The notes: a model not told the origin generated them from the sequence alone. Counted from the first letter of the stretch, positions 3,419-61,994 are shown. The stretch is 64,000 bases of DNA from Candidatus Omnitrophica bacterium CG11_big_fil_rev_8_21_14_0_20_64_10 (GCA_002787095.1 PCVW01000010.1:7774-71773); one strand, 5' to 3'. Numbers and translations are program-made.

Positions 3419-3423
3419 TCCGT

Positions 3424-15665: not shown

Positions 15666-15678
15666 GAGGGGGATTATA

Positions 15679-26271: not shown

Positions 26272-27407
26272 CGGGGTTTGACGCCCAGGACGACCCACTG
26301 TTTTCTGAACCGCTCCGGCACCGCCGGTTCCAGGAGGCGGAACAGCCGCTGCGGGAGGAGCACCTCGGTGATCCAGGCGGCGGCGCGGGGAAGCCGGGGG
26401 GAGACCCAACCGTGACTCCAGATCGTTCGAATGTCGAAGCCGGCTTCAGTCATCAGCCGCTCCAGTCCCTCCCGGCTGACATAGCCCTGGACCGGTTCCC
26501 CCGGCCAGAGAGGACGGCCGGTGCGGCGGGTCCAGGGATTGTCCCGGTTGGCCGTTTGCGTCAGCAGCCAGCCGCCCGGTTTCAGGATCCGCCGGATCGT
26601 TTTCAGGGTCCCGGCCGGATCGGGCAGATAGAGCAGGACCCCCATTGCCAGCACCCCGTCGAATGATTCGGGACGGAAGCGGTTGAGGTCTTCGGCTGAT
26701 CCCCGGAGGAAGAGGGCGCCGGGAATCCGGTTCCAATCGGCCTCGGCGATCCGGGGATCGATTCCGACCACTTCATGACCCAGCAGGGCCAGCGGGGCGC
26801 TGTATCGGCCCCAGCCGCAGCCAAGATCGAGGAAGTGTTGCGGGGATCCCTTCGAGGGGATCGGAAGCCGGTATCGCCGGCAGAAGGCGCTTCCCCAATC
26901 GGCCCGGGTTAGGATCCGCTGCTTGAGCCAACGGTCCCGGATCAAACGGATCCATTCGAATGGGAGCAGTGGAAGCGTTGCCAGCTGCCGGATCCATCGG
27001 GCCCGTCGATCGGCCGGCTGCCAGGGGGCCCAGGTCTGGACCGGATGATGTTTGACGACGATCCCCCGCCCGGCCCGCAGGGCGATCAGTTTTTGAAGGG
27101 GGGAGAGCCGTCCATCGTCCCCGCAGGGGAGGAGCCACCCTTCGCCCGGCGTCAGCTTGCGGCGCAAGGCTTGAAGCGGCCCGGTCGCGGTGATCCGGAG
27201 ATCCGGCCGCCTGTTGAGCTCCGGCCACCCGTTCCAGGGGGCCGGCTCCCCCGCCCCGGGGCGGGGGGCGACCCAATAAAGGTGTCGAACGGTTGGAGGG
27301 AGACCCGTTTCATTCGCCGCGGCGGCCTTCGGGTGGAGATCGATCCAGCCGTTAACCCGGCGCCAGTCCGAAGGAATGGCGGGATCCCAGACCGTTTCCA
27401 GCTTCAT
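26268..27407 (-). CDS. two-domain protein: unknown N-terminal domain plus class I SAM methyltransferase (MT5)
   Basis: C-terminal FLDLGCGWGRYS motif I. ATG at 27407-27405 in an ATGA overlap. Confidence 0.7.
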   Translation of the reverse strand: MKLETVWDPAIPSDWRRVNGWIDLHPKAAAANETGLPPTVRHLYWVAPRPGAGEPAPWNGWPELNRRPDLRITATGPLQALRRKLTPGEGWLLPCGDDGRLSPLQKLIALRAGRGIVVKHHPVQTWAPWQPADRRARWIRQLATLPLLPFEWIRLIRDRWLKQRILTRADWGSAFCRRYRLPIPSKGSPQHFLDLGCGWGRYSAPLALLGHEVVGIDPRIAEADWNRIPGALFLRGSAEDLNRFRPESFDGVLAMGVLLYLPDPAGTLKTIRRILKPGGWLLTQTANRDNPWTRRTGRPLWPGEPVQGYVSREGLERLMTEAGFDIRTIWSHGWVSPRLPRAAAWITEVLLPQRLFRLLEPAVPERFRKQWVVLGVKPR

Positions 27408-28840
27408 TCCGCGCTGCGCCCGCTCCACCACTTCAACCGGTTCATCCAAAAGGCGGTCGCGATGACAACCGCCCCGGCCGCCGCCAGCCGGCCCGGCCAG
27501 CCGGAGATCCAGAAACAGAGTCCCCAGGTCAGCCACCCCATCGGCGCGCAGAGCCAGGCGGCTCTGAGACGGATTCCGAATCGCCGGGCGCTGATTCGGC
27601 CGTACAGGATCCCGATCCCGGTGTAGCAGAGGGAGGTCGAAAGCGCGACGCCCGGCAGGCCGCCCCACCGGATCCCGATCCAGTCCCCGACGGTGTTGAG
27701 CCCCGCCATCGCGAGGTTAAGTCCCATGACCATCGGCAGGGCGTCAAAGACGGAAAAGAGCGGGGTCACGAGGACCGCGAGCGGTTGGAAGCTCAAGCCC
27801 GCCCAGAGCAGGGCCAACGGCGCGGCCGCCCCGGCGTAATCGGGGCCGCCGAGCCACCGGACCCCCTCCGGGGTCACCGCGATCAGGAAGGCCATCGCGC
27901 TTCCCCAGAAGAAGGCGATCTTGGGGGCGGTGATTTCGATGAAGTTCCGGATCCGGCCGGCTTCCCCCCGGTTTTTCCACTCCATGAACATCGGAAAGAG
28001 GATGATGATCAGTCCCATCAGCCCGGTTGAGGCCATCAGCATCAGCCGGTAGCCGAACTGATAAATACCGACCGCCGTCGTTCCCAACACCAGACGGACC
28101 ACATAGAGATCCACCCAATCCACCCAGTAGCCGGCGAGAAAAGTGATCCCGTTGCTCCAGGCGTATCGGGCCGCCCGGAGCAGACCGGACCGGTCCGGCC
28201 GCAGCCAAAGCATCCGCCCCGCCCCGGCCCGCAGGATCAGCCAGCTGCCCATTCCCAGGTAGGTGGCCGTTTCGATCAGGAGGACGGTGGTGGGTGTCGG
28301 GGGCAGGCCGCCGAGGAGGAGCCAGCCGGCTCCGGCCGCCAACCCGGCTTGCCGAATGACATTGGCCGTCGCGTACCGGGGAATCGCCCCGGTCGCCCGG
28401 CTGATGGACAACCCCAGGTCCCACCAGGCGATCGCCGGCAGCAGGGCCGTCAGCGCGTGGATCGCGTTGGACGACAGTCCCGACCAAACCTCAAGCCAGG
28501 GGCGGGCTGCCTCGATCCCGATCATCGCGATCCCGCAGCAGACCGTCAGGAGGCACATCCGGACGGACACCGCTTCCCGGAGCGGCCGATTCTCTTCCAC
28601 GCCGGCGACGCCGAAGCGGATCACGGTGTCGCTGGCCCAGCCGATCGCGACCCGGAAGAGGAACTGGACGGTCGCCACGCCGATCAGGTAGGAGCCGAAC
28701 GGGCCGGCTCCCAGGACCCGGGCGATCGACCCGAGCCAGATCAGGCTCAGCGGGAGACTGATCCCCTGCGCGGCCACGACCGCTCCGTATTGTTTGAAGA
28801 TGTTCCGGACGCTCCAGCGGTCCCGGCCGGCGGAGTTCAA
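27404..28840 (-). CDS. wzx: Wzx-type O-antigen/polysaccharide flippase (MOP superfamily)
   Basis: About 478 aa with 12-14 TM helices and the typical Wzx organisation. TTG start (LNSAGRDRW...) checked in the sequence; local numbering uncertain by 1 nt. Confidence 0.8.
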   Translation of the reverse strand: MNSAGRDRWSVRNIFKQYGAVVAAQGISLPLSLIWLGSIARVLGAGPFGSYLIGVATVQFLFRVAIGWASDTVIRFGVAGVEENRPLREAVSVRMCLLTVCCGIAMIGIEAARPWLEVWSGLSSNAIHALTALLPAIAWWDLGLSISRATGAIPRYATANVIRQAGLAAGAGWLLLGGLPPTPTTVLLIETATYLGMGSWLILRAGAGRMLWLRPDRSGLLRAARYAWSNGITFLAGYWVDWVDLYVVRLVLGTTAVGIYQFGYRLMLMASTGLMGLIIILFPMFMEWKNRGEAGRIRNFIEITAPKIAFFWGSAMAFLIAVTPEGVRWLGGPDYAGAAAPLALLWAGLSFQPLAVLVTPLFSVFDALPMVMGLNLAMAGLNTVGDWIGIRWGGLPGVALSTSLCYTGIGILYGRISARRFGIRLRAAWLCAPMGWLTWGLCFWISGWPGRLAAAGAVVIATAFWMNRLKWWSGRSAE

Positions 28841-28844
28841 GGGC

Positions 28845-30173
28845 TCAGACTCCGATCAATCGTTGATAGGCCGCCTGCCGGCGTTCCGAGGCGATCGGCC
28901 AATCGTAATGGTCCCGCACCGCGGCCTGGGCCGCCTCCCCCATGGCTTGGGCCCCCTCCGGCTGTTCCAGCAGCCGGCAGACCGCCTGGGCGGCGGCGGC
29001 GATCGCCCCTTCCGGAATCAGGCGGCCGGTCGCCCCGTCCCGGATCAACTCCCGATGCCAGGCGAGATCATAGGCGACGACCGGTTTGCCGGCGGCGGCC
29101 GCTTCCAGCAGGCTGAAGCCCCCCATCAGGCAGATCTGGACATCCGATGCGGCCCGCCACAGGCGGAGCGACTCTCTCGGCAGGAACCCGAGCCAGCGGA
29201 CGCTGTCCGACAATCCCAAACGCCCGGCGGCCGCTTCCAGCGCCCTCCGCTGGGAACCGTCTCCGATGACGACCGCCTGCAGGTCCGGATGGGACCGCTT
29301 CACTTCGGCGGCGATCCGGAGAAAATCTTCGGGATAGTTCACTTTTTCGAGCCGTCCGATGAACAGCAGCAGCGGTTTTCCACTCAAACCGGCTTCCTTC
29401 CGGAAGCGGACCGCGTCCGTTTCCGGCGTTTTCCAAAAACTGAGATCCACTCCATGCGGCAGCACGGCGATCCGGTCCCGGTCGGCTCCCCGCCGCGTCA
29501 CCCATTCGGTGAGACTGGGTCGGACCACCCAGACCGCTTCGGCCCGCCGGAGGACCCAACGCTGCGCCGTCTCGGCCAGCCGGCGGGAACGGCCCCACCG
29601 GGCGGTCTCTCGGTCATCGAGTCGACGGGAGAGGTCCGGGTCTCCGTGCAGGGAGACCCCCCAGCGGACTCCGGTCAAACCGGCCAGCCAGGCGGCCAAG
29701 AGTCCCATCGGAAAGGGGTCCTGTCCCCGGATCACGGTGACCTCCCGCCGGATCGACAGCGATCGGCTGAGTCCCCAGACCGCCAGCCTCAGACCGTTGA
29801 GGGTGTGGTGGCAGGCGGTCCAGCCGGCGCCTTTCAGAAATCGGGCAATGGGCCGGAGGGTCCGGATCGTTTGCACAGGGCTCCAGCGGGTTCGGCGATT
29901 CTGTTCCGATGGGAAGTAAAGGGTTTCGACCCCGTCCCAGAACCCGGCCTCTTCCCGTTCTGAAATCAGGGAGCCGACCCCCTTGGTTAGGATCGCTTCA
30001 AAACCGGCGGGGACCAGACAAAGCAGCCTCCGTCCGGGCTTGCGGGGGATCCCCCGCAACAGAAGGGCGGTCGGCAGGGCCAGCAGCCCGAGGAGCGCCC
30101 CGCCGAGGAGAGCGATTCCGGCCGCGACGCAACCGTCCGCCCAACGGCTTCCCGGGGAGTTTGAGGCGGCCAT
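28845..30173 (-). CDS. family-4 glycosyltransferase with N-terminal TM anchor
   Basis: KPLLLFIGRLEKVN...VVIGDGSQRRALE...EAAAAGKPVVAYD, a Glycos_transf_1 signature. ATG at 30173-30171. Confidence 0.8.
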   Translation of the reverse strand: MAASNSPGSRWADGCVAAGIALLGGALLGLLALPTALLLRGIPRKPGRRLLCLVPAGFEAILTKGVGSLISEREEAGFWDGVETLYFPSEQNRRTRWSPVQTIRTLRPIARFLKGAGWTACHHTLNGLRLAVWGLSRSLSIRREVTVIRGQDPFPMGLLAAWLAGLTGVRWGVSLHGDPDLSRRLDDRETARWGRSRRLAETAQRWVLRRAEAVWVVRPSLTEWVTRRGADRDRIAVLPHGVDLSFWKTPETDAVRFRKEAGLSGKPLLLFIGRLEKVNYPEDFLRIAAEVKRSHPDLQAVVIGDGSQRRALEAAAGRLGLSDSVRWLGFLPRESLRLWRAASDVQICLMGGFSLLEAAAAGKPVVAYDLAWHRELIRDGATGRLIPEGAIAAAAQAVCRLLEQPEGAQAMGEAAQAAVRDHYDWPIASERRQAAYQRLIGV

Positions 30174-30183
30174 GGCCGTCGGG

Positions 30184-31278
30184 TCAACTGCGGGCCGCAG
30201 CGTCGTCCGCTGCCGGCGGTTGGGAGGCCCTCAGGGCCGGGACCTGGTAGCTGGAGCAGAGCCGGCAGATGTCCACCGTTCCCTGATCGGAGCGGATCTG
30301 TTTCCGAAATGCCCGGTACTTGGGGCCGTTCCATATTTTTCCGAAATCCTCCCGGAAGACATTTCCCATGATGTGGTGGGCCTTTGGGTCCCGGCAGCAG
30401 GGAACGACGTTCCCGTTCCAGGTGATCACCGAGGAGAAGTAGATCCAGTCGCAGCGGTTCTCGGGGAGAACCTTCGGCCGCAGGATCCCCTTCCGGAAGG
30501 CCGCTTCATCGTAGAACCAGTACCGCTTGTCTTCCGGAAGCATCTGGATCGCCTGGGCCATGTTCCGCACGCAGGGATCCACAACATGGACCCGGTCCAC
30601 CCCCCACCCCGAAACGGTCCGGACGAATTCCTCCACCTCATGCTCGTTGTGCTTCATGACGATGAACCCGACATTGATCTGAGGTGTCTTGAGTGGTCCC
30701 CGGGTGCCGGATCCGCCGAGCCGTTTCCGGGCTTCCACGAGTCCCCGGATGTTGGCGCAGACACGGTCAAAGCTGCTGTTGATCCGGTAGGTTTGGTGGG
30801 TTGCCTGGGTCATGCCGCCGATGTTGAAGTTGATCTCGTCCAGGCCCGAACGGACCGTTCGTTCGGGGTCCAGAACGGAACCGTTTGAATAGATCGTCAC
30901 ATAGATTCCCTGGTCCTTGGCGTGGCGGATCATGTCGTAGATGCGGGGATGCCAGAAAGATTCCCCCATGAAGTAGAGCTGAATCGAGTTGGTGTGGTGC
31001 CGCACCTGAGCGATCACCCGCTGAAAATTCTCGAAGGACATCTGTCCCACCGGCCGGTCAATGATCTTAGCGCCGGTCTCGCAGACCGGACAGCCGAGGT
31101 CGCAGGCACTGGTCGGTTCGATCGTCAGGAAAGCGGGCCGGCCGGCCGCCCGTTCGGTCCGGAGCCAGGCTGAGGGGATCGTCCGGCAGAAGGCCCAGAA
31201 TCCTTTGGGGCGCTGCGAAGCCATCCAGGCGAATTTCTTCAGCTTGTGGAGGATCGGTTTCCGGATCGGTTCGCTCAC
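30184..31278 (-). CDS. radical SAM / SPASM-domain protein
   Basis: CDLGCPVC is a CxxxCxxC cluster; the C-terminus NGNVVPCCRDPKAHHIMGNV...CRLCSS is a SPASM-like Cys cluster. A GTG at 31278-31276 gives a GTGA overlap with the asnB-like stop. Alternative ATG at 31224. Confidence 0.75.
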   Translation of the reverse strand: MSEPIRKPILHKLKKFAWMASQRPKGFWAFCRTIPSAWLRTERAAGRPAFLTIEPTSACDLGCPVCETGAKIIDRPVGQMSFENFQRVIAQVRHHTNSIQLYFMGESFWHPRIYDMIRHAKDQGIYVTIYSNGSVLDPERTVRSGLDEINFNIGGMTQATHQTYRINSSFDRVCANIRGLVEARKRLGGSGTRGPLKTPQINVGFIVMKHNEHEVEEFVRTVSGWGVDRVHVVDPCVRNMAQAIQMLPEDKRYWFYDEAAFRKGILRPKVLPENRCDWIYFSSVITWNGNVVPCCRDPKAHHIMGNVFREDFGKIWNGPKYRAFRKQIRSDQGTVDICRLCSSYQVPALRASQPPAADDAAARS

Positions 31279-33107
31279 GATGTCCCCTTCCTGCTTTCGG
31301 CCGGAACCGGGAGGATCTCGCCGGCCGATTCCATGAAGCGGCGCAGCCACCATTCGAAAGCCGCCAGCGACCAGATCAGCAGCCGGTGATCGGCGCGGCC
31401 GTTCTGGTGGGATTCGAGGATTTCCTGAAGCCACGCCGGCTGGAAAACTTCGTTGACTCGGCTGTTCGGTTGAGCCAGCAAGGTTCGGACGGTTGCCATC
31501 CGGTCGGCCCGCAGCCAGGCCGATTCGGGGGGGCTGAATCCCTGTTTCGGACGCCGGCAGGTCCGTTCCGGGAGGAGGGGCGCCAGCGCCCGGCGCAGCA
31601 GCCGCTTTCCTTCCGGCCCGGGGTCCTTTTGTTCGACCGGCAGCCCCCGAACCCAATCGGACAATTCCAGGTCCAAAAACGGCACCCGGCTCTCCAGCCC
31701 ATGAGCCATGCTCAGCTTGTCCTCCACCATCAGCAGTCCCTGCAGAAAGGTGTCGGCTTCGAACCGAACCGCTTTCTCGACCGGCGGCAGCGCCCGATAG
31801 GGGGCGATCCGCTCCCGGTACCGCTCCCAAGGGGAATGGGAGCGCATCCGTCTCCAGACCTCCGGAAGGAAGGCATTGGCCTGCTCGTCTGGAGGGATCA
31901 GCCGGCACCAGGCGGCGAACTGGATCCGATCAAACTGCTCCGGGTCGTTCGCCTCGGCGATTGCCGCGTAACGCCAGGGGTAGCCGCCGAACAGTTCGTC
32001 TCCTCCGACGCCCGAGAGGACGACGGTCACGTCCCGGCGGGCCAGTTCCGCGGCGAAGAAATTGGGGTAGGACATCCCGACCCGAAGTTCTTCCAGGTGG
32101 GTCACGAGGCGGGGCAGCAGATCCCACCCGTCACCCGGTCCGATCGTCCGTTCATGATGCCGGGTCTTGAGCCGGCGGCTCAGCCACCGGGCCTCTTCCC
32201 GTTCGTCGAACCGGGCTTCGGGCCCGGTCACTCCCGAGACATCGAATCCGGCGGTAAAGGTATCGAGCTCGGGCAGCCGCCGCTGAGCCAACGCGACCAA
32301 AGCCCCGGAGTCCATCCCTCCGCTCAGGAAGGCGCCGACCGGCACGTCACTGATCAGGTGGCGGTTTACCGCCGCAGTCAGCCGTTGGAGCAGCTCTTCC
32401 TCCGTCCGCCCGGCCGGCTCGCTCCGGTTGACGGGGATGCCTTCGGCGATCCGATGGGTTCGGATCTTCCCCTCCGCCACTTCGAGCAATTCTCCGGCCG
32501 GGAGCAGTTCGATCCCGTCGAAAAGGGTCTGCCGGCCGAACAAATTCTGAAAGGTGAAGTACTCCCGAAGCGCTTCCCAACAGATCCGGCGGGGAGCTCC
32601 ATCGGCCTGCAGCAGCCCTTTGACTTCCGAAGCGAAATGAAGCCGATTTCGGAAGCGGCCCAGGTACAGCGGCTTGATTCCGAACCGGTCTCGGGCCAAC
32701 CAAAGGGTTTGGGAGCGGCCATCCCACAGGGCGAAGGCGAACATCCCGTTGAGCCGGGCGAAAGCCGCCGGTCCCTGCGCCTCGTACAGGTGGAGGATCA
32801 CCTCCCCATCGGTTTGGGAGGCGAAACGGTGCCCGAGCCCTTCGAGCTCCCGGCGCAGTTCCCGGAAGTTGTAGATCTCGCCGTTGAAAATCAGCTGCAG
32901 GCGGCCGTCCTCGTTGCCCAGCGGTTGGCGGGCCGTGTCGCTCAGGTCAATGATGGCCAGCCGCCGATGCCCGAGTCCGATCGGTCCTTCGAGGAAGAAG
33001 CCTTCCCCGTCGGGTCCCCGATGAGCGAGGGCCCGCGTCATTCGGATCAGCCCCGCCCGATCGGCCCGCCCGCCCGACAGGTCGATCATCCCGGCGATCC
33101 CGCACAT
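31275..33107 (-). CDS. asnB: asparagine synthase (glutamine-hydrolysing) family amidotransferase, copy 1
   Basis: N-terminal MCGIAGMIDL (Cys2 nucleophile), a GATase-2 domain, the PP-loop SGGMDSG and AsnB C-terminal blocks. The ATG at 33107-33105 forms a TGATG 1-nt overlap. Confidence 0.9.
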   Translation of the reverse strand: MCGIAGMIDLSGGRADRAGLIRMTRALAHRGPDGEGFFLEGPIGLGHRRLAIIDLSDTARQPLGNEDGRLQLIFNGEIYNFRELRRELEGLGHRFASQTDGEVILHLYEAQGPAAFARLNGMFAFALWDGRSQTLWLARDRFGIKPLYLGRFRNRLHFASEVKGLLQADGAPRRICWEALREYFTFQNLFGRQTLFDGIELLPAGELLEVAEGKIRTHRIAEGIPVNRSEPAGRTEEELLQRLTAAVNRHLISDVPVGAFLSGGMDSGALVALAQRRLPELDTFTAGFDVSGVTGPEARFDEREEARWLSRRLKTRHHERTIGPGDGWDLLPRLVTHLEELRVGMSYPNFFAAELARRDVTVVLSGVGGDELFGGYPWRYAAIAEANDPEQFDRIQFAAWCRLIPPDEQANAFLPEVWRRMRSHSPWERYRERIAPYRALPPVEKAVRFEADTFLQGLLMVEDKLSMAHGLESRVPFLDLELSDWVRGLPVEQKDPGPEGKRLLRRALAPLLPERTCRRPKQGFSPPESAWLRADRMATVRTLLAQPNSRVNEVFQPAWLQEILESHQNGRADHRLLIWSLAAFEWWLRRFMESAGEILPVPAESRKGTS

Positions 33108-34006
33108 CAGGCCTTCCGTCCGATCGCCGAGATGCCGTTCGGGTTCGGGGTCAGCAGGCGGATTTCCTTCAGGCCGGCCGCTTCGAACCATCCCCGCACT
33201 TCTTCCGGGGTATGACGGAAGGCGTGGGCGGGATGGTACCAGTCAAAGTTCACAAGGGTGTTTTCGTCGAACTTGAAATCGGGGTTCCAGAAACACTTGA
33301 AGAAATGATCGTAGATCAGCCGCTGCAGGTCATACCGGCCGGCCGGGATCCCCAGGCCCGGCAGGTCCTGCGGCACGTCAACGGTCGCCTGCATCTCGGA
33401 GAGCGCCTTTCCGAACCGGGTGAAGGCTTCGCTGAAGGCCCAGCAGGCTTCCGGCTCCATCCGGGTTGCTTCCGCTCGGAGCAAGTCATCGCAGAATTCC
33501 CGGGCCGGCCCCATCTTGCGGTAGACATGGATCGCGATCAGGCCGCCCGGCGCCAGGAACGGCAGCAGCGCTTCGAAGGCCCGGCGGGTATCTGGAGGGT
33601 GATGCAGGACCCCGTCGCTGACGATCAGATCGAACTGTTCTTTCCGGAATGGCATGCGGAAGAGGTCGGCTCGAAGAATCCGGGCGTTGGCGTGGTGCCG
33701 CACGTTTTGCCATGCTGGGACGACCGATTCCGAGAAATCGATGCCCACTGCCGGGGCGGTCCGGTTGAACCGGCAGAAGGTGTCGATCTTGGCCCCCAGC
33801 CCGGTCCCAACGTCGAGAAAGGAGCGCCGGCCGGACAAGAACGCAGGAAGCTGTTCGGGGGCCGGCAGTCCCAGTTTTCGGCTGAACCAGTCGTCGTAGA
33901 ACTGTTTTTGGCGCTCGTCCTGGAAACCGAATCCGGGCAGCCGGTTCCATTTGAACGAGAAACTGCTTTGGACCTGCCGGCGCCGGTCGGTCAATTCCGG
34001 AGTCAT
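33107..34006 (-). CDS. class I SAM-dependent methyltransferase (MT6)
   Basis: FLDVGTGLGAKI motif I; ATG at 34006-34004 in an ATGA overlap. Confidence 0.75.
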   Translation of the reverse strand: MTPELTDRRRQVQSSFSFKWNRLPGFGFQDERQKQFYDDWFSRKLGLPAPEQLPAFLSGRRSFLDVGTGLGAKIDTFCRFNRTAPAVGIDFSESVVPAWQNVRHHANARILRADLFRMPFRKEQFDLIVSDGVLHHPPDTRRAFEALLPFLAPGGLIAIHVYRKMGPAREFCDDLLRAEATRMEPEACWAFSEAFTRFGKALSEMQATVDVPQDLPGLGIPAGRYDLQRLIYDHFFKCFWNPDFKFDENTLVNFDWYHPAHAFRHTPEEVRGWFEAAGLKEIRLLTPNPNGISAIGRKA

Positions 34007-34581
34007 CGGGTTTGTTCCCGGTCGTAGACCAGCCGGACCCCGCCTTCGGCATCGGTCTCCACTCGGCCGACGATCCGGGCCGGGGCGCCGACGGCGATCG
34101 AATGCGCAGGAAGGTCTCGGTTCACGAAACTGTGGGCTCCGATCGCGCAGTGGTCTTCGATCGTCACCCCTTTCGCAATCGTGGCTTGAGGGCCGATGAA
34201 GCAGGCGTCGCCGATCCGGACCGGCGCATGGGCGTAGGGAGCTTTCCCGCCGCTCAAGGCCCAGGCGACGGTATCATGGGAGTAGATCTGAACGCCCGCC
34301 GAGATGCTGCAGAAATTTCCGATTCGGAGCTTTCCGGTTCCGTCGAGGATGACCAGGGGGCCGATCCAGGCGTTCTCTCCCACCGTCACATCGCCGTAAA
34401 CATAGCTGAGCTGGTAGATGCTGCTCCCCTTCCCGAAACCGAGCGCTTGCGCTCGTTCCTTCCGGTCAAACAGGGATTCTTCAAAAGGAAGGGAGCGGTT
34501 CCACTTCCGGCGGATTTGGAGATCCAGTTCCTGTCCGAGGCGCTTGAGCTGGGCGTGAAGGGGGTGGGGCAGCTTCGTCAT
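34003..34581 (-). CDS. hexapeptide-repeat (left-handed beta-helix) sugar acetyltransferase
   Basis: Repeated [LIV]G-x4 hexapeptides (GENAWIGPLVILDGTGKLRIGNFCSISAGVQIY...); ATG at 34581-34579. Confidence 0.8.
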   Translation of the reverse strand: MTKLPHPLHAQLKRLGQELDLQIRRKWNRSLPFEESLFDRKERAQALGFGKGSSIYQLSYVYGDVTVGENAWIGPLVILDGTGKLRIGNFCSISAGVQIYSHDTVAWALSGGKAPYAHAPVRIGDACFIGPQATIAKGVTIEDHCAIGAHSFVNRDLPAHSIAVGAPARIVGRVETDAEGGVRLVYDREQTR

Positions 34582-35741
34582 CGGGCGCTCAACTCCTTGC
34601 GGATTGTCTCGATCACCTGGTCCTGGTCGGCGGCGCTGAGTGCCGGATAGAGCGGCAGGGTCAGCGATTCCTGATCGGCCGTCCAGGCGTTCGGGAAATC
34701 TTCCGGACGAAAGCCGTATTTCCGGGCGTAGTAGTCCAGCGCATGGACCGCGTGGGTCCCCTGCCGGGTGGCGATCCCTTCCCCTTTGAGTTGTTCCGCC
34801 AGTTCATCCCGGGAACAGCGGGCCGCCGGCGTGATCCGGATGACATAGGATTGGAAGGGATGGACCTCCCCTTCCGGGATCGCCGGGGTTTCCAGTCCCG
34901 GCACGCCCCGCAGCCCTTCGGCATACCGCCGGGCCAGCCGGAGGCGGGCCTCCAGCAGCGCCGGGAGGCGCTTCATCTGGACCGCGCCGAGGGCGGCCTG
35001 GAAGTCTGTCATCCGGTAGTTGTAGCCGGCCAATCCGAATTGAGGCAGCCGGGCGCTCTGATCGCCGTGCCGGCTCCAATCCGACCGGGATTCCCCGTGC
35101 GATCGCAGCTGCCGAAGCCGTTCGGCGAGCGTTCCGTCGGCGGTGACGATCGCTCCCCCCTCCCCGGTCGTGATCACCTTCCGGGGGTGGAAGCTGAAGC
35201 AGCCGCTTGTCCCGAAGCTGCCGGCCGCCCGGGACCCGCTCCGGGCGCCGATGGCGCAGGCGGCATCCTCGATCACCCGCAGGTTCCGGCGCTCAGCCCA
35301 CGGCATCAGCCGGTCCATCGGGGCCATGCGGCCGAAGAGATGCACCGGGATCACGGCGCGGGTTTTCGAAGTGATCCGGGCCTCCCAGGCGTCGGGATCG
35401 ATGTTCCAGCTGTCGAGCCGGATGTCCACGAAGACGGGGCGGGCCCCGGTCTGCTCGACCGCGTTGGCGGTGGCGACATAGGTCAAGGCGGGGACCAGCA
35501 CCTCATCCCCCGGTCCGATCCCGCAGGCAACCAGACTCAGATGAAGGGCGGCGGTGCAGGAGGAGACGGCAATCGCGTGGGGGACGCCGCTCGATTCCGA
35601 CAAGAGGGTTTCGAACCGCCGGACCTGCTCCCCCTGGACCAGCCAGCCGCTCCGGAGGACCGCGGCGACCGCCTCCAGTTCCTCCGGACCGATGTTCGGT
35701 CGGGTGATCGGAATGGTCCTGGAAGCGGAGGCCGGGTTCAT
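34578..35741 (-). CDS. DegT/DnrJ/EryC1/StrS-family PLP-dependent sugar aminotransferase
   Basis: IPITRPNIGPEELEAV...AIAVSSCTAALHLSL...VPALTYVATANAV...FSFHPRKVITTGEGG. ATG at 35741-35739 in an ATGA overlap. Confidence 0.9.
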   Translation of the reverse strand: MNPASASRTIPITRPNIGPEELEAVAAVLRSGWLVQGEQVRRFETLLSESSGVPHAIAVSSCTAALHLSLVACGIGPGDEVLVPALTYVATANAVEQTGARPVFVDIRLDSWNIDPDAWEARITSKTRAVIPVHLFGRMAPMDRLMPWAERRNLRVIEDAACAIGARSGSRAAGSFGTSGCFSFHPRKVITTGEGGAIVTADGTLAERLRQLRSHGESRSDWSRHGDQSARLPQFGLAGYNYRMTDFQAALGAVQMKRLPALLEARLRLARRYAEGLRGVPGLETPAIPEGEVHPFQSYVIRITPAARCSRDELAEQLKGEGIATRQGTHAVHALDYYARKYGFRPEDFPNAWTADQESLTLPLYPALSAADQDQVIETIRKELSAR

Positions 35742-37435
35742 CGGCCGGCTCCGAAAGGAAAACGGTACCGGAGGCGCAGTTCCCCGTTCCGGTTCCAATC
35801 ATCCGACAGGTCGGGAGAGCTTCCCTTGATGCCCGACAGGTCCGTCGGCTGGAAGTAGCGGGAAGAACCCATGTGGCGGACCGAGAATTTTCCGGGACGC
35901 CGGAGCCATCGCATCGGCAGCGGCCGGGAGGCGGTGGAGATCAGATGGTCCACGACCTCGATCCAGTCCGGCTCCAGGGCGATCGTCCGGGTCAGCGCGA
36001 TCGGCGCCGTCCGATGTCGGTACAGCAGGGCGCCGACCAGCAGCCGCTTCAGCCACAGGGCGGCGGCCGGCAGCCGGCCGATCGTCAGGTTGAACAGCCG
36101 GAACAGGAAGAATGGGCCCGGCGAGAAGGTTTTCCTCGGCAGCCGGCGGAATTGTTTTTGGATCCGCCAGCTGTTGCCGGCATTCTCGATCCCCGCTTCG
36201 CCGGGATGCTGCAGCCACAGAGAGGAAACCAGTTCCCCGCCCCGGGTCAGGCCGGCGTAGCCGCCGTCGGCGATCACCGGCTGTCCGGTCGTCCGGTCCC
36301 AGGCTTTCAAGACCCCTCCCTTGGAGAGTCCCAGGATCGCGAAATAGCGCGGGGTGCTCTTGACCAGCAGCCCGGCTTCCGCGAAATGGCGCTCCCCTTC
36401 CCGCTCAAAACCGAAGGCCGGGCGCTGCGCGGGGATCGGACCGGCCGCTTCCTGCGCGAACAAGTAGTTGTTCAGCATCGGAAAGAAATTGTAGGGATCC
36501 ATCGCCGCCAATCCCGCCGCTTGCTGGTCGGCGACCGCCGGCCGCATCCAGGCGGCAATCGCGGCGGCCTGCGGGTCGTGGGGGGCCAGGATCTCAAAGG
36601 CCGCCGGAAAGAAGAATTCGGTGTCCCGGCTGCCGGTTTCGCCGCCGAGCGTCCGGTCGGGGTGGATCACCTCCAGCAGGAAGGCGCTGGCCCGTTTGAG
36701 CGTCGTCAGCAGCCGGCCCTCCCGCGACTGCTGCCAGATGCGGGCCAGGTAGAACATCCCCAGCGTCTGGTAGCCGGGATCGGCCCCGCCGTACTCATGC
36801 AGCCAGCCTTCGGCTGATTGGTGCTTCAGGATGATTTCCAGGAAGTGGTCCCGCCGCTGCAGGAAATCCCGTTCCGCCAACAGCTCTCCGGCGTGGTGAA
36901 GGGCGCCGGCGGCGGCGGCGAGGTGGTTGGTCAGGATCCCATGGGTTTCTCCCGATCGGCAGAGCCAGCGTCCCGCTTTCCGGAGGGCCGACTCAACGGT
37001 GTTCCGTTGGGGGACCGAGAGCCGGCCTTGAAGGCGCCGGAAGGCTTCGGCGGCATGAAACGCAGAGACCGCAGTGGCGGCCAGGCTCTGTTCGTGGGGG
37101 TAGGCCTCATCGAAGGAGCCGTCGGCGTGTTGAATCCGGCTCCAATAGAGCAGCGCGGCGGTCGCCCAGGCTTCGGCCTGAGGGAGGCCGGCATACCGGT
37201 TGCCGGGAAACGGCAGTGTCGCCACCGCGGCGAGGGCGTAGGCCCCTTCCTGGAAACGGGCTCCCGGGAAATCGGTGAACTTCCAGCACCAATGGGTCCG
37301 GTCCAGACAACCGTAACTCTTGGAATGCTCCTGACGGTCCAGCATCGAGAAGAGGCGGGGCAGCTCCGCCGTGATCCGGGCGGCGTACGGCGAAGCCAGC
37401 GCCTGCGAATCCGAAACGGCCGGTTGAGTCGGCAT
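35738..37435 (-). CDS. hypothetical protein (approx. 565 aa), possibly alpha/alpha-toroid carbohydrate-active fold (heparinase II/III-like?)
   Basis: No motif recognised with confidence. A helical N-terminal region rich in Trp/His (SYGCLDRTHWCWKF, HEQSLAATAVSAFHAAEA) and a beta-rich C-terminus. ATG at 37435-37433 (MPTQPAV...) in a TGATG overlap with the upstream stop. Confidence 0.4.
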   Translation of the reverse strand: MPTQPAVSDSQALASPYAARITAELPRLFSMLDRQEHSKSYGCLDRTHWCWKFTDFPGARFQEGAYALAAVATLPFPGNRYAGLPQAEAWATAALLYWSRIQHADGSFDEAYPHEQSLAATAVSAFHAAEAFRRLQGRLSVPQRNTVESALRKAGRWLCRSGETHGILTNHLAAAAGALHHAGELLAERDFLQRRDHFLEIILKHQSAEGWLHEYGGADPGYQTLGMFYLARIWQQSREGRLLTTLKRASAFLLEVIHPDRTLGGETGSRDTEFFFPAAFEILAPHDPQAAAIAAWMRPAVADQQAAGLAAMDPYNFFPMLNNYLFAQEAAGPIPAQRPAFGFEREGERHFAEAGLLVKSTPRYFAILGLSKGGVLKAWDRTTGQPVIADGGYAGLTRGGELVSSLWLQHPGEAGIENAGNSWRIQKQFRRLPRKTFSPGPFFLFRLFNLTIGRLPAAALWLKRLLVGALLYRHRTAPIALTRTIALEPDWIEVVDHLISTASRPLPMRWLRRPGKFSVRHMGSSRYFQPTDLSGIKGSSPDLSDDWNRNGELRLRYRFPFGAGR

Positions 37436-39003
37436 CAGGAATAGCGGGAACCCCGCCCCCGGTAGGTCCGGACCTCTTCGACCCAGGAAGCGAACAGAAA
37501 ATAGTAGAGACCGCTCCAGAGGAAGCGGAGGAACCGGCCAAACGGCATGTGCGGGAGATTCCGCAGCCAGGTCCAAACGGTCTTGGGCCGCAGATAGAAC
37601 TTCCGGAAGGCCTCCCGGGCGACCTGCTCCAGCTCCTCCCTGCTTCGGTGGGCGGGAACCCAAATCTTGTCGAAGTTGGTCAGCAGATGGTTCTGGTGTT
37701 CCCCGGACTGGATGAAGGAGCCGTTTTCGACCGCGTCTTTCCAGATCTCCGTCCCCGGGTACGGTTCGAAGATCGGGAAGACCGCGTAATCGAGGCGGCT
37801 GGTGACCGCGAAGGAGATCGTCTTGCGGGACTGCGCCGGGGTCTCGGTCGGCAGTCCCAGCATGAAGGAGGAGAGGGTCCGGATCCCGGCGGCGTTGGCG
37901 ATCCGGATCCCCTCGTAGTTCCGTTCGACGGTCAGCTTCTTCCGAATCAGGTTGAGCAGCTGCTGGTCCCCCGATTCGCAGCCGAAGACGATCAGGTAGC
38001 AGCCGGCCCGCTTCATCACCCGGCACAGTTCGGGATCCACCAAGTCGGTCCGGGTGAAGCACATCCAGCGGAACTGGTGCTTGTTGGACGCCAGCTTCTC
38101 GCAGAGGGCCAGCACCCGCTTCCGATTGGTCGTGAAGATGTCGTCGTAGAACTGGAAGCTGTCGAACCCGTAGGTTGTGTGGAGCCGGTTCAGGTCCTCC
38201 ACCACGCGCTGCGGCGAATGGTGGCGGAAGGTCCGGCCGAAGGTCATCTTGGCTTCACAGAAGGTGCACTCGTAGGGACAGCCGCGGGAGGTCACGTAAT
38301 TGGCGACCCGCCGGCCCCAGATGTGAATCGCCGGGTAGTAGCGGTCCATCGGGTAGAGATCGAGCGCCGGCATCGGGATGGAGTCCAGGTTCTGGATCAG
38401 CGGCTGTCGGGGAGTCCGGACGATTTGGCCGGACCGGTCCTTGACCCAGATCCCCGGCACCTGGGTCAGGGCCTTCGGGTCGTCCAGCGCGGCGGCAAGT
38501 CGGCAGAAGGAGATCTCCGCTTCGGAGATGATCACCGCGTCCACATGGGGGTTCTCGATCGTCCGTTCGGGGAAGATCGTCGCCTGCGGTCCCCCGAGCA
38601 CGACGCGGGCTTTGGGGGAGATCCGCTTGACCAGTTCCGCGACCTTCAGGCAGCGGTCGATGTTGTTGATGAAGACCGCCATGGAAACGATGTCGGGGCC
38701 GAACTCGGCCAGGTCCCGGGCGAGGGTGTCGTACCCCTGCCGGAGGATTTCGTAATCCACGAGGCGGACGGTGTGACCGACGCTGCGGGCGGCCGAGGCG
38801 ACATACGCCATCCCCAGCCAGGGCAGTTCGGTCGCCGCCACCGCGAGACGGCCATAGTTCATCTCAACCGATCCGGGAGGGACCAGGAAGAAGATTTTCC
38901 GCCGGGGGCCGCCCCGGAAATCATCGGCCCGGAAGAGGACGTCTTTCTGCAGGAGTTCGGAGGCCTTCGGGGCCTCCGGCGCGATCAGGAGGGATTCAAC
39001 CAT
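37435..39003 (-). CDS. B12-binding-domain radical SAM enzyme (class B radical SAM methyltransferase-like)
   Basis: N-terminal cobalamin-binding-like Rossmann (KARVVLGGPQAT), then TSRGCPYECTFCEA (CxxxCxxC). ATG at 39003-39001 (MVESLL...). Confidence 0.85.
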   Translation of the reverse strand: MVESLLIAPEAPKASELLQKDVLFRADDFRGGPRRKIFFLVPPGSVEMNYGRLAVAATELPWLGMAYVASAARSVGHTVRLVDYEILRQGYDTLARDLAEFGPDIVSMAVFINNIDRCLKVAELVKRISPKARVVLGGPQATIFPERTIENPHVDAVIISEAEISFCRLAAALDDPKALTQVPGIWVKDRSGQIVRTPRQPLIQNLDSIPMPALDLYPMDRYYPAIHIWGRRVANYVTSRGCPYECTFCEAKMTFGRTFRHHSPQRVVEDLNRLHTTYGFDSFQFYDDIFTTNRKRVLALCEKLASNKHQFRWMCFTRTDLVDPELCRVMKRAGCYLIVFGCESGDQQLLNLIRKKLTVERNYEGIRIANAAGIRTLSSFMLGLPTETPAQSRKTISFAVTSRLDYAVFPIFEPYPGTEIWKDAVENGSFIQSGEHQNHLLTNFDKIWVPAHRSREELEQVAREAFRKFYLRPKTVWTWLRNLPHMPFGRFLRFLWSGLYYFLFASWVEEVRTYRGRGSRYS

Positions 39004-39850
39004 GCGAGGGCCTCGAGGCGATCGCAACCGGCGCTCCGGCCGCTTCCCAAAGAGTTCGGCGCTCTCCCAAAACCAGCTGGAGCGCGGTCAAACGGCTGAT
39101 GGGCCGGTGCCGGCGGCGGTTGTCCGAGAAAGGGGAAAAACGGGTTGGCGCCGCCGGTCCTTCCAGGAGATAGGCGGTCTCTCCGACCACGGAGAGAGCC
39201 ACCGCCTGCCCGGCAATCCCCTCCCGGATCGGGGTGAGCCGGCCGGCCGGATCCAGCCGGCTCAAGCGGCCGGTCGTTCGGTCGGCGACCAGCAGGGTCC
39301 CGTTGGTTCCCCAGGGGGTCACACCGACTGGATTCGATAATTCCGTTTGTTTCCACAGCACTTGTCCGCTCTCCATTTCCCAGGCGACCACCGCCCCTCG
39401 AACGCCGTCCAGACAAATGGCGGCCATCACTCGTTTTCCATCCGGCGTCAGAACCAGCCGCCGGACACCCGGCGACAGACAAAACAAAGCTTTCGGGACC
39501 GCCTTGAAATTTTCCCAACAAAGAAGGCGGCCCGAAGTAGACTCCACCCCATAGATTGACCTGGACTTCAGGTCTAACCCTATGGCGCATAATTTGTTAC
39601 GGCCATGATACACCATTTGGAGGGGGCCGTCAGCCGATTTCATGAAGGCGATCCCCTCTTCGACGAGGAGCCACAGTCCCTCGGGGCTCCAGAGAAGGTC
39701 CAGCAGGGTTGAGGGGAGGGGGCGGCCGAGGCGGCGGATCGGGCCAGCGGCATCCCCGCCCCAAAGCCGAGCAAAGGATCTCCCCAGCCAATTGCGGCGA
39801 CGCAGAAGACAGAGAAGCGGTGGAAAGGAGTTTTTAGCGGGCGCCGGCAT
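38996..39850 (-). CDS. hypothetical protein, beta-propeller-like repeats (putative)
   Basis: It is the only open frame across 39003-39834. Repeated hydrophobic/Gly/Trp strands (YGVESTSGRLLCWE, GAVVAWEMESGQVLWKQT, GTLLVADRTTGRL) resemble PQQ/WD-like propeller blades. ATG at 39850-39848. It spans an AT-rich patch. Confidence 0.35.
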   Translation of the reverse strand: MPAPAKNSFPPLLCLLRRRNWLGRSFARLWGGDAAGPIRRLGRPLPSTLLDLLWSPEGLWLLVEEGIAFMKSADGPLQMVYHGRNKLCAIGLDLKSRSIYGVESTSGRLLCWENFKAVPKALFCLSPGVRRLVLTPDGKRVMAAICLDGVRGAVVAWEMESGQVLWKQTELSNPVGVTPWGTNGTLLVADRTTGRLSRLDPAGRLTPIREGIAGQAVALSVVGETAYLLEGPAAPTRFSPFSDNRRRHRPISRLTALQLVLGERRTLWEAAGAPVAIASRPSHG

Positions 39851-41051
39851 CCCGCCCGTCCAGCCAGCCGCTCTCTTCCAGCAACCGGGCAATCGCTTCG
39901 GCCACCGCCTGGTTGCCGACGGCATTCGTATGCTGCCAATCGATCGGAAAGCGGGTGTCGGCGGTTGCTTCGAAAGTTTCGGAGAGATCTGCCCAGCGGG
40001 CCGTCCCGTTCCGGCGGGCATCGGCTGCTTCGGCGATCCGGTTTCGAATCCGGTCCCGGATCCCCTCCCACAGCGGCCGGTAGGCGGGATTCGGAACACC
40101 TCCCGAAAGGCCCTGTTCCAGGACGGCCCGCTCCTGGGAACTTAAGGCCGGTTTGTCGAAGAGGGTCGGCTGCCAGAGAAAGAGGGTCTTGAATCCGTAC
40201 CGCTCCCCGAGGGCCGAGGCGATCCGGAAGTTCTGGAGATAGATGGAGGCGGCCGCCGCCTCCATCGATTCCAGCTGTTGGGGGTCCTGCCCGAACGGGC
40301 GGCCCGACGGGCCGCTCGTTCCCGAACGGTTTCCGGTCCCGATCAAACGGACCAGATGGGTTTCCTGAAATCGTTCCCGCACCCGGACGGCGAGGTGTCG
40401 GATCAGATCTCCGAAGCCGAGACTGTACCCGATCTTCTGCGCGTCTTCGTAGATGCCGGCGATTCGCTTCAGGTTGTGGTGGTCGCCGGGGGATCCCTGC
40501 GCGACCGCCACCGTCTCGTTGATCCCGTCGTAGAAGATTACGATGTCGGGCGCCGCGCCCCGTTCGAGCTGGTAGATGAGGTCGATCAGCTCCTGCGAGT
40601 TCACATAGCCGCCGATCCCGAAATTCACGCACTCGACCGGCTCCAGTCCCCGGTTGGCTCCGAGACGCTCGGCCAAGCGGGCCGGAATAGTCCAAGCGTC
40701 GGAGGCCCCCTGCCCCAGCATCGTGGAGCCTCCGAACAGGAAGATCCGCCGGGCCCCCGGCTGAACGGTTTGCGGGGTCCGCCGGCGTCCTTCCGAATCG
40801 ATGTTGATATGGCGGCCGACATGCGGCGCGTATCCCCAGACCCGGTACGGCAGATAACGGGCCCGGTAGAAGGCTTTCTGTTCGGAGGAGATCCCCGGAA
40901 AATCTTTCTCCGGGGTTTCCTGGAACCGATTCACCCGGGCCGCCTCCCGCCGGTCGAGGATCACCTTGGCCCCCACTTCCAGCAGACAGCCGGTGCCGCC
41001 GATGATCCCGGTCCAAACGGCCAGGAGCAGAACCAGCCGGCGGCCGCTCAT
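39834..41051 (-). CDS. SGNH/GDSL-like hydrolase (putative glycan O-acyl esterase / acyltransferase) with N-terminal TM
   Basis: TM helix, then RIFLFGGSTMLGQGA (block I), NFGIGGYVNSQE and VIFYDGINE blocks. ATG at 41051-41049 in an ATGA overlap; TAA stop at 39836-39834. Confidence 0.55.
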   Translation of the reverse strand: MSGRRLVLLLAVWTGIIGGTGCLLEVGAKVILDRREAARVNRFQETPEKDFPGISSEQKAFYRARYLPYRVWGYAPHVGRHINIDSEGRRRTPQTVQPGARRIFLFGGSTMLGQGASDAWTIPARLAERLGANRGLEPVECVNFGIGGYVNSQELIDLIYQLERGAAPDIVIFYDGINETVAVAQGSPGDHHNLKRIAGIYEDAQKIGYSLGFGDLIRHLAVRVRERFQETHLVRLIGTGNRSGTSGPSGRPFGQDPQQLESMEAAAASIYLQNFRIASALGERYGFKTLFLWQPTLFDKPALSSQERAVLEQGLSGGVPNPAYRPLWEGIRDRIRNRIAEAADARRNGTARWADLSETFEATADTRFPIDWQHTNAVGNQAVAEAIARLLEESGWLDGRDAGAR

Positions 41052-50438: not shown

Positions 50439-50446
50439 GGATCGGC

Positions 50447-51930: not shown

Positions 51931-51933
51931 CGT

Positions 51934-52767: not shown

Positions 52768-52768
52768 C

Positions 52769-61993: not shown

Positions 61994-61994
61994 C

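Follow-up and report, generated by a model that had tools for sequence, protein, structure and literature searches.

We analysed a 64,000-nucleotide stretch of DNA from Candidatus Omnitrophica bacterium CG11_big_fil_rev_8_21_14_0_20_64_10 (GCA_002787095.1, PCVW01000010.1:7774-71773), hereafter the window, which encodes two radical S-adenosylmethionine (rSAM) enzymes among sugar-tailoring genes. The window has a G+C content of 65% and nearly all of its genes lie on the minus strand. According to Pfam and NCBIfam scans of its open reading frames (ORFs), the whole 64 kb form a single, very large and co-directional biosynthetic locus of the lipopolysaccharide (LPS)/O-antigen type, with two GT9 heptosyltransferases, a Wzy_C ligase, a WecA-like initiating transferase, a Wzx-like flippase, many glycosyltransferases (GT) of families GT2 and GT4 and two PMT-like GT-C proteins. 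An annotation previously made from the bare sequence (the sequence-only reading) had located both rSAM genes, at 30184-31278 and 37435-39003; both are on the minus strand, and their domains and motifs agree with it. The same reading took both enzymes, with the genes between them, for one self-contained amino-sugar module. Comparison with related loci did not bear this out: very probably, the two enzymes belong to two separate, widely conserved glycan-tailoring gene sets, here called cassette A and module B, and do not form a pair.

A radical SAM enzyme with a twitch domain

The gene at 30184-31278 (minus strand) is the last of cassette A and encodes an rSAM enzyme of 364 amino acids (aa) with a BtrN-like twitch auxiliary-cluster domain, which Pfam recognises as SPASM (hereafter twitch-rSAM). 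Its scores were 36.1 bits for Radical_SAM (PF04055, cut-off 29.5) and 57.9 bits for SPASM (PF13186, cut-off 21.5). The motif C59-x3-C63-x2-C66 reads SACDLGCPVCETG, its three cysteines are invariant in an alignment of 30 sequences of the family, and the predicted structure displays the partial TIM barrel. Two JGI metagenome contigs contain, as an independent gene call, the same 364-aa protein (P0121), so that the start of the gene can be fixed at 31278. In these contigs, too, the neighbouring genes encode a hexapeptide transferase (192 aa), a methyltransferase (299 aa) and an AsnB (610 aa).

The SPASM label given to this protein by the sequence-only reading holds for the Pfam model; against TIGR04085 (SPASM), the score of 24.0 stays below the cut-off of 27, and only the twitch set of cysteines is present. 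In the 30-sequence alignment, the only invariant cysteines of the C-terminal domain are C276, C294/C295, C338 and C341, with C236 being near-invariant. No cysteine follows C338-x2-C341, and the CX2CX5CX3C block, part of the seven-cysteine motif of SPASM proteins with two auxiliary clusters, is absent. What we found instead is the four-cysteine twitch pattern (approximately C-x18-C-x43-C-x2-C) in the form C276-x18-C295-x42-C338-x2-C341, and positions 3-70 of the twitch model NF033640 align with residues 274-342. With a family profile, the top match in the PDB was BtrN (E=1.3e-17); its PCC...GN and CxxC segments fall on the auxiliary-cluster ligands of BtrN, and the twitch segment aligns to the BtrN twitch at 44 bits. 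Since the CX2CX5CX3C block is missing and TIGR04085 is not reached, we assign the domain to the twitch-type, single-auxiliary-cluster version of SPASM. That is, the auxiliary domain is BtrN-like, with one predicted cluster.

The nearest solved relatives of the twitch-rSAM are BlsE, BtrN and DesII, all of which act on sugars; SuiB, SkfB and the anaerobic sulfatase-maturing enzyme (anSME) are also among its close structural neighbours. The best NCBIfam match was the maturase of a tungsten-cofactor oxidoreductase (TIGR04317), at 106 bits versus a cut-off of 380, and the protein does not fall into the anSME, PqqE, sactipeptide or tungsten-cofactor maturase equivalogs. BtrN, the 2-deoxy-scyllo-inosamine dehydrogenase of butirosin biosynthesis and founding twitch-domain rSAM enzyme, is only about 21% identical to the window protein, which is approximately 100 residues longer and has two additional N-terminal helices. 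Whereas BtrN acts on an aminocyclitol, the window enzyme is presumed to use a nucleotide sugar in a polysaccharide pathway. Identity is about 15-19% to BlsE (cytosylglucuronate decarboxylase, blasticidin S) and DesII (TDP-4-amino-4,6-dideoxyglucose deaminase), the NCBIfam BlsE model gives 38 bits versus a cut-off of 400, and the pathways of both enzymes differ in gene partners, as they contain no AsnB, methyltransferase or acyltransferase. Homologues with 43-69% identity came solely from metagenomes and metagenome-assembled genomes (MAGs) of many phyla, and none of them is named. The wider clade comprises about 3,000 cluster representatives (50% identity, E<=1e-30) and includes fusions of GT2 with rSAM/SPASM (632 and 615 aa) and of rSAM/SPASM with a methyltransferase (645 aa; proteins P0436, P0486 and P0509).

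Cassette A and its conservation

All genes of cassette A lie on the minus strand. Directly upstream of the twitch-rSAM gene, 31275-33107 encodes the first copy of an AsnB-like glutamine amidotransferase (AsnB1; Pfam Asn_synthase, 290 bits, plus GATase). It reached 431 bits for TIGR01536 (cut-off 267) and fell short for the XrtA/PEP-CTERM amidotransferase (442 versus 817). Both AsnB copies of the window begin with MCG, which provides the N-terminal nucleophile cysteine, and carry GATase and Asn_synthase domains, as AsnB-type enzymes do. A class I SAM methyltransferase (33107-34006, Methyltransf_11), a hexapeptide-repeat acyltransferase of 192 aa (34003-34581, Hexapep) and a DegT-family aminotransferase (34578-35741, PF01041, 388 bits) follow further upstream. 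We classify the aminotransferase as C4-type: its closest PDB entries are the C4 enzymes ArnB (1.6e-71) and perosamine synthase (2e-69), and the C3 enzyme WbpE trails (1e-44). Specific equivalogs were not reached (PseC 327 versus 423 bits, ArnB 289 versus 631). The remaining member, a GalE-like short-chain dehydrogenase/reductase (SDR; 44667-45626, Pfam Epimerase, best NCBIfam match GalE), is parted from the DegT gene by module B. It carries the motif SSSASVYG...YGATK, which we take to be GalE-type and 4-epimerase-like, without the acid/base pair of dehydratases, and in the PDB it comes closest to 4-epimerases, among them MoeE5, WbpP and a UDP-glucuronic acid (UDP-GlcA) 4-epimerase. On the other side, a GT4 glycosyltransferase (28845-30173, Pfam) lies directly downstream of the twitch-rSAM gene.

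To compare gene neighbourhoods, 83 loci around twitch-rSAM orthologues and 23 around orthologues of the second rSAM enzyme were fetched and analysed by tblastn and unbiased ORF clustering. Counts for cassette A refer to the 16 loci with at least 6 kb of flanking sequence on both sides of the twitch-rSAM orthologue. An AsnB gene adjoins the rSAM gene in all 16 of them. The GalE-like SDR (43-63% identity) is present in 15, adjoining DegT, and DegT itself in 14; GT4 was found in 13, the methyltransferase in 12, the hexapeptide acyltransferase (50-64% identity) in 10 and the flippase in 9. Relatives of a 541-aa membrane protein encoded further downstream in the window occur in 13 of the 16 (23-44% identity, mostly 25-30%). 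The usual order, on one strand, is SDR, DegT, methyltransferase, AsnB, acyltransferase and rSAM, followed by GT4 or the membrane protein. Cassette A occurs across many phyla of uncultured bacteria, and lineages that carry loci of the two rSAM families include Gemmatimonadota, Omnitrophota, Acidobacteriota, Alphaproteobacteria, Thermodesulfobacteriota and Leptospirales. In locus L006, a formyltransferase takes the place of the acetyltransferase, as expected if the hexapeptide enzyme N-acylates an amine installed by DegT. Another cassette A locus (L008, 5522-8452) encodes a methyltransferase-AsnB fusion of 976 aa. Together with the GT2-rSAM and rSAM-methyltransferase fusions, it indicates that rSAM, methyltransferase, AsnB and glycosyl transfer are functionally tied.

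The B12-binding radical SAM enzyme and module B

The second rSAM gene, at 37435-39003 (or up to 39027 with an upstream TTG start; minus strand), belongs to module B and encodes a B12-binding-domain rSAM enzyme of 522 aa (hereafter B12-rSAM). A B12-binding domain (PF02310, 76.2 bits versus cut-off 32.1, residues 61-177) precedes the Radical_SAM domain (PF04055, 74.1 versus 29.5, residues 244-406). This fusion of an N-terminal Rossmann-type B12 domain with an rSAM core is the class B architecture, to which we assign the enzyme on the basis of its domains; cobalamin binding and methyl transfer are putative, and we know of no motif by which proteins that bind cobalamin could be told from AprD4-like non-binders at the sequence level. 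The motif reads CPYECTFC (C-PYE-C-TF-C), with C250, C254 and C257 invariant among 30 aligned sequences. All NCBIfam matches stayed under their cut-offs, namely ApyD (217 versus 750 bits), HpnJ (192 versus 578), BchE (188 versus 481), PhpK (150 versus 600), HpnR (144 versus 650) and AprD4 (130 versus 500), and the same is true for the BzaD and ladderane rSAM equivalogs. The closest solved relative is AprD4 (E=6e-32), aligned over the rSAM core (residues 162-440) and not over the B12 domain. Orthologues are 45-76% identical, stem solely from MAGs and metagenomes of many phyla, and none is named.

Directly downstream, 35738-37435 encodes a 565-aa protein with a predicted (alpha/alpha) toroid and beta-sandwich. 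We found no sequence match in the PDB and none above threshold in Pfam or NCBIfam; only the fold search was informative, with matches to DS-epimerase 1 and heparinase II/III. At about 10-14% identity to dermatan-sulfate epimerase 1 and the heparinase II/III lyases, this is a likeness of fold only. Since the protein has no signal peptide, it is expected to be cytoplasmic. Upstream of the B12-rSAM gene and also on the minus strand lie a beta-propeller-like protein of about 284 aa (38996-39850, start uncertain; weak PQQ_2 match of 21 bits, below cut-off), which is 27% identical to the product of the gene upstream of B12-rSAM in locus L001, and an SGNH/GDSL-like protein (39834-41054, weak Pfam match) with one N-terminal transmembrane (TM) segment. 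These are followed by the second AsnB copy (AsnB2; 41048-42937, Pfam), which resembles the first in its scores (TIGR01536 432 versus 267 bits; XrtA/PEP-CTERM amidotransferase 420 versus 817, failed), and by a DUF6798 polytopic membrane protein (42937-44670, Pfam) with at least seven TM segments, a candidate GT-C-type transferase with homologues in L001 and L009.

Three genes at some distance may belong to the same system. The GT2 at 58259-59230 (minus strand) resembles polyprenyl-phosphate glycosyltransferases, has two C-terminal TM segments and corresponds, as an orthologue, to the GT2 found beside B12-rSAM genes elsewhere: it is 41% identical, over the full length, to the GT2s of L009 and L004, with DPMS, ArnC and GtrB as top PDB matches. 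Next to it, 59208-60365 (minus strand, Pfam 354 bits) encodes a UDP-GlcNAc 2-epimerase family protein (Epimerase_2), a possible partner of module B as this family adjoins GT2 and B12-rSAM in L004, L010, L026 and L117. The third is a PMT/PMT_2-like GT-C membrane glycosyltransferase (60305-61993, minus strand, Pfam). The GT2 nearest to module B (45623-46720) was considered as the ArnC-like partner and rejected, since it has no TM segment and is similar to soluble GT2s of the chondroitin/heparosan-synthase type.

Among 21 non-redundant loci with a B12-rSAM orthologue, 17 contain an AsnB-like gene and 17 a large polytopic membrane protein (at least 450 aa) of the YfhO, DUF6044, DUF6798 or PMT_2 type. 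A GT2 of about 330 aa, with C-terminal TM helices and full-length matches to ArnC as well as matches to GtrB and DPMS, was found in 13, and a homologue of the 565-aa protein in 11. The GalE-like SDR occurs in only 5 of the 21, compared with 15 of the 16 twitch-rSAM loci. In L001, the propeller, B12-rSAM, 565-aa homologue, GT2, DUF6798, methyltransferase and AsnB were found together. Five B12-rSAM loci (L012, L014, L016, L017 and L021) encode a DprE1-like FAD oxidase of about 440 aa (E=2e-37 to the DprE1 structures of M. tuberculosis and M. smegmatis) and an adh_short protein of about 243 aa, a pair that resembles DprE1/DprE2-type epimerisation of a polyprenyl-phosphate sugar outside Actinobacteria. 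Taken together, the GT2, the polytopic proteins and the DprE1-like pair form the signature of systems in which a single sugar is built and modified on polyprenyl phosphate before a GT-C enzyme transfers it (Arn, Gtr, decaprenyl-phosphate-arabinose). Like Arn (ArnC/ArnT), Gtr (GtrB/GtrC) and DprE1/DprE2, the B12-rSAM orthologues are flanked by such GT2s and polytopic proteins; these known systems, however, contain neither an rSAM enzyme nor AsnB.

Several B12-rSAM loci have two B12-rSAM genes in tandem, as noted for L001, L003, L004 and L026-L028. In L117 (1-3122, ENA contig_16415), the B12-rSAM homologue is only 320 aa long and has no B12 domain; an rve-family integrase/transposase gene is found at a distance of about 0.9 kb. 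This copy may be truncated.

Relation of the two gene sets

Reading in the direction of transcription from B12-rSAM to twitch-rSAM, the window encodes the 565-aa protein, DegT, the hexapeptide acyltransferase, the methyltransferase and AsnB1. The sequence-only reading had these intervening genes right except for AsnB1, which it left out, and took them together for a module for an unusual amino sugar; in such a pathway, both rSAM enzymes would act in turn on the same sugar. In its favour, the genes are contiguous, co-directional and translationally coupled in the window. Other loci tell otherwise. Neither a B12-rSAM orthologue nor the 565-aa protein was present in any of the 16 well-flanked twitch-rSAM loci (0/16 each), and no twitch-rSAM orthologue was present in the B12-rSAM loci (0/21). 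The partners also differ: B12-rSAM goes with AsnB, GT2 and polytopic proteins, and twitch-rSAM with AsnB, SDR, DegT and hexapeptide genes. In addition, the gap between SDR and DegT in the window is filled by exactly the DUF6798, AsnB2, SGNH, propeller-like, B12-rSAM and 565-aa genes. Since the adjacency of SDR and DegT is conserved elsewhere and is interrupted here by this exact set, module B appears to have been inserted into cassette A. One 142-kb ENA contig (contig_16415) does carry both sets, but about 40 kb apart. A few related loci have another B12-rSAM paralogue (21-29% identity) near the twitch-rSAM gene, either directly downstream at about +1.2 kb (L040, L042 and L043) or several kb away (L089 and L113), which would favour a joint pathway. 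Given that the orthologues share none of the loci counted above, we regard a single pathway as quite improbable. The paralogues of L040 and L042 are 27-29% identical to the window B12-rSAM. Together with the tandem B12-rSAM genes, they show radical enzymes recurring in these glycan loci in varied combinations.

Proposed chemistry and alternatives

Cassette A would produce a modified nucleotide sugar that the adjacent GT4 places in the repeat unit. In this scheme, the GalE-type SDR would set the C4 configuration of a UDP-hexuronate-type sugar, AsnB1 would turn its carboxylate into a carboxamide, the C4-type DegT would aminate a 4-keto intermediate, the hexapeptide transferase would N-acylate the new amine and the methyltransferase would add a methyl group. 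AsnB-type enzymes of glycan pathways, such as WbpS, WbtH and MoeF5, make uronamides. The twitch-rSAM would supply the step beyond these ordinary enzymes; most likely, it would oxidise a sugar C-H/OH by radical chemistry of the BtrN kind and so yield the ketone needed by DegT; BtrN likewise precedes a DegT-family aminotransferase in butirosin biosynthesis. The most economical order would have the UDP-hexuronate-type sugar 4-epimerised, amidated, C4-oxidised, transaminated, N-acylated and methylated.

For module B (44670 down to 35738), the GT2, 2-epimerase and GT-C at 58259-61993 are probable partners. The module would decorate a polyprenyl-phosphate-linked sugar, which the GT-C-type membrane enzyme would then transfer. 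AsnB2 would amidate a uronate, the 565-aa protein could act at the uronate C5 as an epimerase or lyase-type enzyme, and the most likely reaction of the B12-rSAM is C-methylation at an unactivated carbon of the sugar, for which MoeK5, working next to MoeF5, provides the model in moenomycin biosynthesis. The substrate of MoeF5 and MoeK5 is a uronate linked to a lipid, which matches the polyprenyl-phosphate signature of module B. The MoeE5/MoeF5/MoeK5 trio is the closest known counterpart of module B, and moenomycin offers the best-documented precedent for an AsnB-type enzyme beside a cobalamin-rSAM enzyme on such a uronate. For moenomycin unit F, the same three enzyme types are used, with MoeE5 as UDP-GlcA 4-epimerase, MoeF5 as AsnB-like amidotransferase and MoeK5 as cobalamin-rSAM C-methylase. 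A review (PMC9204698) counts MoeK5 among the cobalamin-rSAM C-methylases that add a single methyl group and groups it with Fom3 and HpnJ in a similarity network.

A tblastn search of plasmids further detected a megaplasmid locus of Streptomyces clavuligerus with a B12-rSAM of 30% identity (189 bits) across 80% of the window protein; BchE (about 150 bits) and HpnJ (about 129 bits) ranked lower in the same search. We annotated this locus by hand; its order is ABC transporter, GalE-like SDR, AsnB, a 411-aa protein, a degenerate AsnB and B12-rSAM. SDR, AsnB and B12-rSAM are 31%, 35% and 30% identical to the window SDR, AsnB2 and B12-rSAM, respectively, and the NCBIfam ranking (ApyD > HpnJ > BchE > PhpK) is the same for both B12 proteins. 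The likeness to moenomycin has limits, however. Identities are low, and instead of an LPS-type glycan, moenomycin is an antibiotic that actinomycetes make as a phosphoglycolipid. Its moe cluster lacks the epimerase/lyase-fold 565-aa protein, DUF6798/GT-C and the ArnC-like GT2, all of which are found with module B. Unlike MoeE5 in the moe trio, the window SDR is, judged by the related loci, a companion of cassette A (15/16) and not of the B12 set (5/21).

For both enzymes, other kinds of chemistry have to be weighed. The B12-rSAM might not methylate at all; its reaction might be a rearrangement by radical chemistry, the contraction of a ring, a cyclisation or the dehydration of a sugar diol, as in HpnJ, BchE and AprD4. 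This would fit the scores of HpnJ and BchE near the top of the NCBIfam ranking and AprD4, a sugar 1,2-diol dehydratase, as closest solved structure; HpnJ also co-localises with MoeK5 and Fom3 in the published network (PMC9204698). The AprD4 alignment, however, leaves the B12 domain uncovered, the top family match, ApyD, is a proven C-methylase (PMC10635010), the locus is otherwise rich in methylation, and the pairing of AsnB with B12-rSAM has its methylase precedent in MoeF5/MoeK5. We therefore favour a putative C-methylation of a uronate-derived residue, and treat the non-methylating reaction as unlikely on balance, though a serious rival. The twitch-rSAM, in turn, might be a BlsE-like radical decarboxylase/C4-epimerase or a NeoN/HygY-like epimerase on a nucleotide sugar, instead of a dehydrogenase that feeds DegT. 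A decarboxylation would remove the very carboxylate on which AsnB, strictly conserved alongside the rSAM gene, is expected to act, and for the auxiliary-cluster domain the best alignment is with BtrN, a dehydrogenase; we consider this course, the main alternative for cassette A, unlikely as well.

One or both enzymes could finally be peptide or protein maturases (for ribosomally synthesised peptides with post-translational modifications (RiPPs), of the anSME type, or for metallo-cofactors) that lie in a glycan locus by chance. Nominally, the best NCBIfam matches are maturases (tungsten-cofactor, 106 bits; ApyD, 217 bits), and SuiB, SkfB and anSME are close structural neighbours, but these scores are far under the cut-offs of 380 and 750. 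Neither protein could be assigned to an anSME-like or other non-glycan family, with all curated cut-offs being missed by both. We detected no RiPP recognition element (RRE) domain. As the sequence-only reading had noted, there is no room for a precursor: with starts corrected, the genes between 28845 and 46720 overlap their neighbours by 1-17 nt or lie 10 nt apart. Beside the orthologues, we saw no conserved small ORF and no sulfatase or oxidoreductase partner. Both families lie within glycan gene sets across phyla, and GT2-rSAM fusions exist in the clade. Along with the sugar-acting nearest relatives BlsE, BtrN and DesII and the LPS-type locus, this supports a glycan or sugar substrate, also expected by that reading, and makes a maturase highly improbable.

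Several points weigh against the proposed chemistry. Neither rSAM family has a characterised member, and the cut-offs of curated families are not reached. For the B12-rSAM, the models of non-methylases (HpnJ 192, BchE 188, AprD4 130 bits) give scores about as good as those of methylases (ApyD 217, PhpK 150), and AprD4, the closest relative with a solved structure, is not known to use cobalamin. A UDP-sugar 6-dehydrogenase was not found in the window, so that the uronate substrate is assumed. Without any rSAM enzyme, the genes at 46714-48314, which encode a GFO/WbpB-like oxidoreductase and the second hexapeptide transferase, could provide the keto sugar for DegT, and the SDR itself might release a 4-keto product. 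The ArnC-like GT2 of the window and the GT-C lie 19 kb away from the B12-rSAM gene. Finally, the S. clavuligerus locus is only presumably moenomycin-like: its order fits moeE5-F5-GT1-H5-K5, and the record is unannotated. Domain content, gene order, conservation of the sets, folds and the lack of a peptide substrate are observed, and every chemical step and substrate is proposed from them. For the two modules including this chemistry, we estimate a probability slightly below even (roughly 45%). That the product of cassette A is a sugar new to bacterial surface glycans (for example a 4-acylamino-4-deoxy-hexuronamide) made via radical C4 oxidation of a uronamide, and that module B performs the first radical C-methylation of an LPS-type glycan, on a polyprenyl-phosphate-linked sugar, would be a bolder claim that we hold to be improbable; under it, amidation before the C4 oxidation would avert the spontaneous decarboxylation of a 4-keto-uronate.

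To our knowledge, nearly all described rSAM chemistry on sugars belongs to the biosynthesis of antibiotics (for example butirosin, blasticidin, desosamine, gentamicin and moenomycin). Here, two rSAM families are each a fixed part of conserved gene sets in cell-surface polysaccharide loci of uncultured lineages. Both are large and specific to glycan loci, and their nearest characterised relatives are sugar-tailoring enzymes of antibiotic pathways. The remark of the sequence-only reading that such enzymes are rare in LPS-type loci applies to characterised loci; in metagenomes, both families are specific to them. In our literature searches, we found no relevant work that brings rSAM/SPASM enzymes together with asparagine synthase, O-antigen, LPS or nucleotide sugars. 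If the proposed chemistry is true, oxygen-independent C-H functionalisation (oxidation and C-methylation) would join the known routes of LPS/O-antigen diversification, and defined enzyme sets with candidate substrates would be at hand for reconstitution. The two rSAM enzymes call for study as separate systems, and each has an AsnB partner of its own; their gene sets are well defined, widespread and directly testable, and the chemistry attached to them is proposed throughout.

Other features of the window

Downstream of the GT4 and on the minus strand lie the Wzx-like flippase (27404-28840; weak Pfam match to Polysacc_synt; 52-53% identical in L006 and L007), a 625-aa protein (24532-26409; no Pfam or NCBIfam match; relatives of about 593 aa in the same two loci) and the 541-aa membrane protein (22273-23898), which has at least three TM segments and no Pfam or NCBIfam match and whose relatives follow the twitch-rSAM gene in most related loci. 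Sizeable stretches without a convincing minus-strand gene, judged by third-position G+C, are confined to 15665-16887, 48314-49200, 54022-54747, 57480-58259 and 61993-63263; they may hold promoters or genes of atypical codon usage.

Two known systems suggested by individual matches were dismissed. A PEP-CTERM/XrtA system was raised by TIGR03108 and TIGR04063, whose matches are far under cut-off, and no exosortase was seen. For the pseudaminic/legionaminic acid route, raised by the PseC match of DegT, that match is under its cut-off; no PseB-type dehydratase was present among the NCBIfam-scanned proteins and no sialic-acid-synthase-type family among the Pfam-scanned ones.

The stretch 46714-48314 (minus strand) encodes the GFO/IDH/MocA oxidoreductase (47280-48314) and the adjoining 236-aa hexapeptide transferase, a WbpB/WbpD-like pair without its own WbpE-type aminotransferase in the window. 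The best NCBIfam match of the oxidoreductase is UDP-GlcNAc 3-dehydrogenase (134 bits, under cut-off), and the pair recurs in L003 and L008.

At least 11 class I SAM methyltransferases are encoded in the window, among them those at 3424-4326, 13855-14685, 20616-21530, 23787-24542, 26268-27668, 33107-34006 and 51934-52767; their abundance suggests a very heavily methylated glycan. A separate CDP-sugar branch is found at 49200-54022 and 1719-3467 (minus strand). Its glucose-1-phosphate cytidylyltransferase passes the equivalog TIGR02623 (345 bits, cut-off 300), and the branch also contains a CDP-glucose 4,6-dehydratase-like SDR, a methyltransferase and a TylC3-type C-methyltransferase (Methyltransf_13/14). 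A second TylC3-type C-methyltransferase, with a long N-terminal extension, is encoded at 1719-3467. The locus may thus additionally produce branched-chain sugars via a non-radical route.

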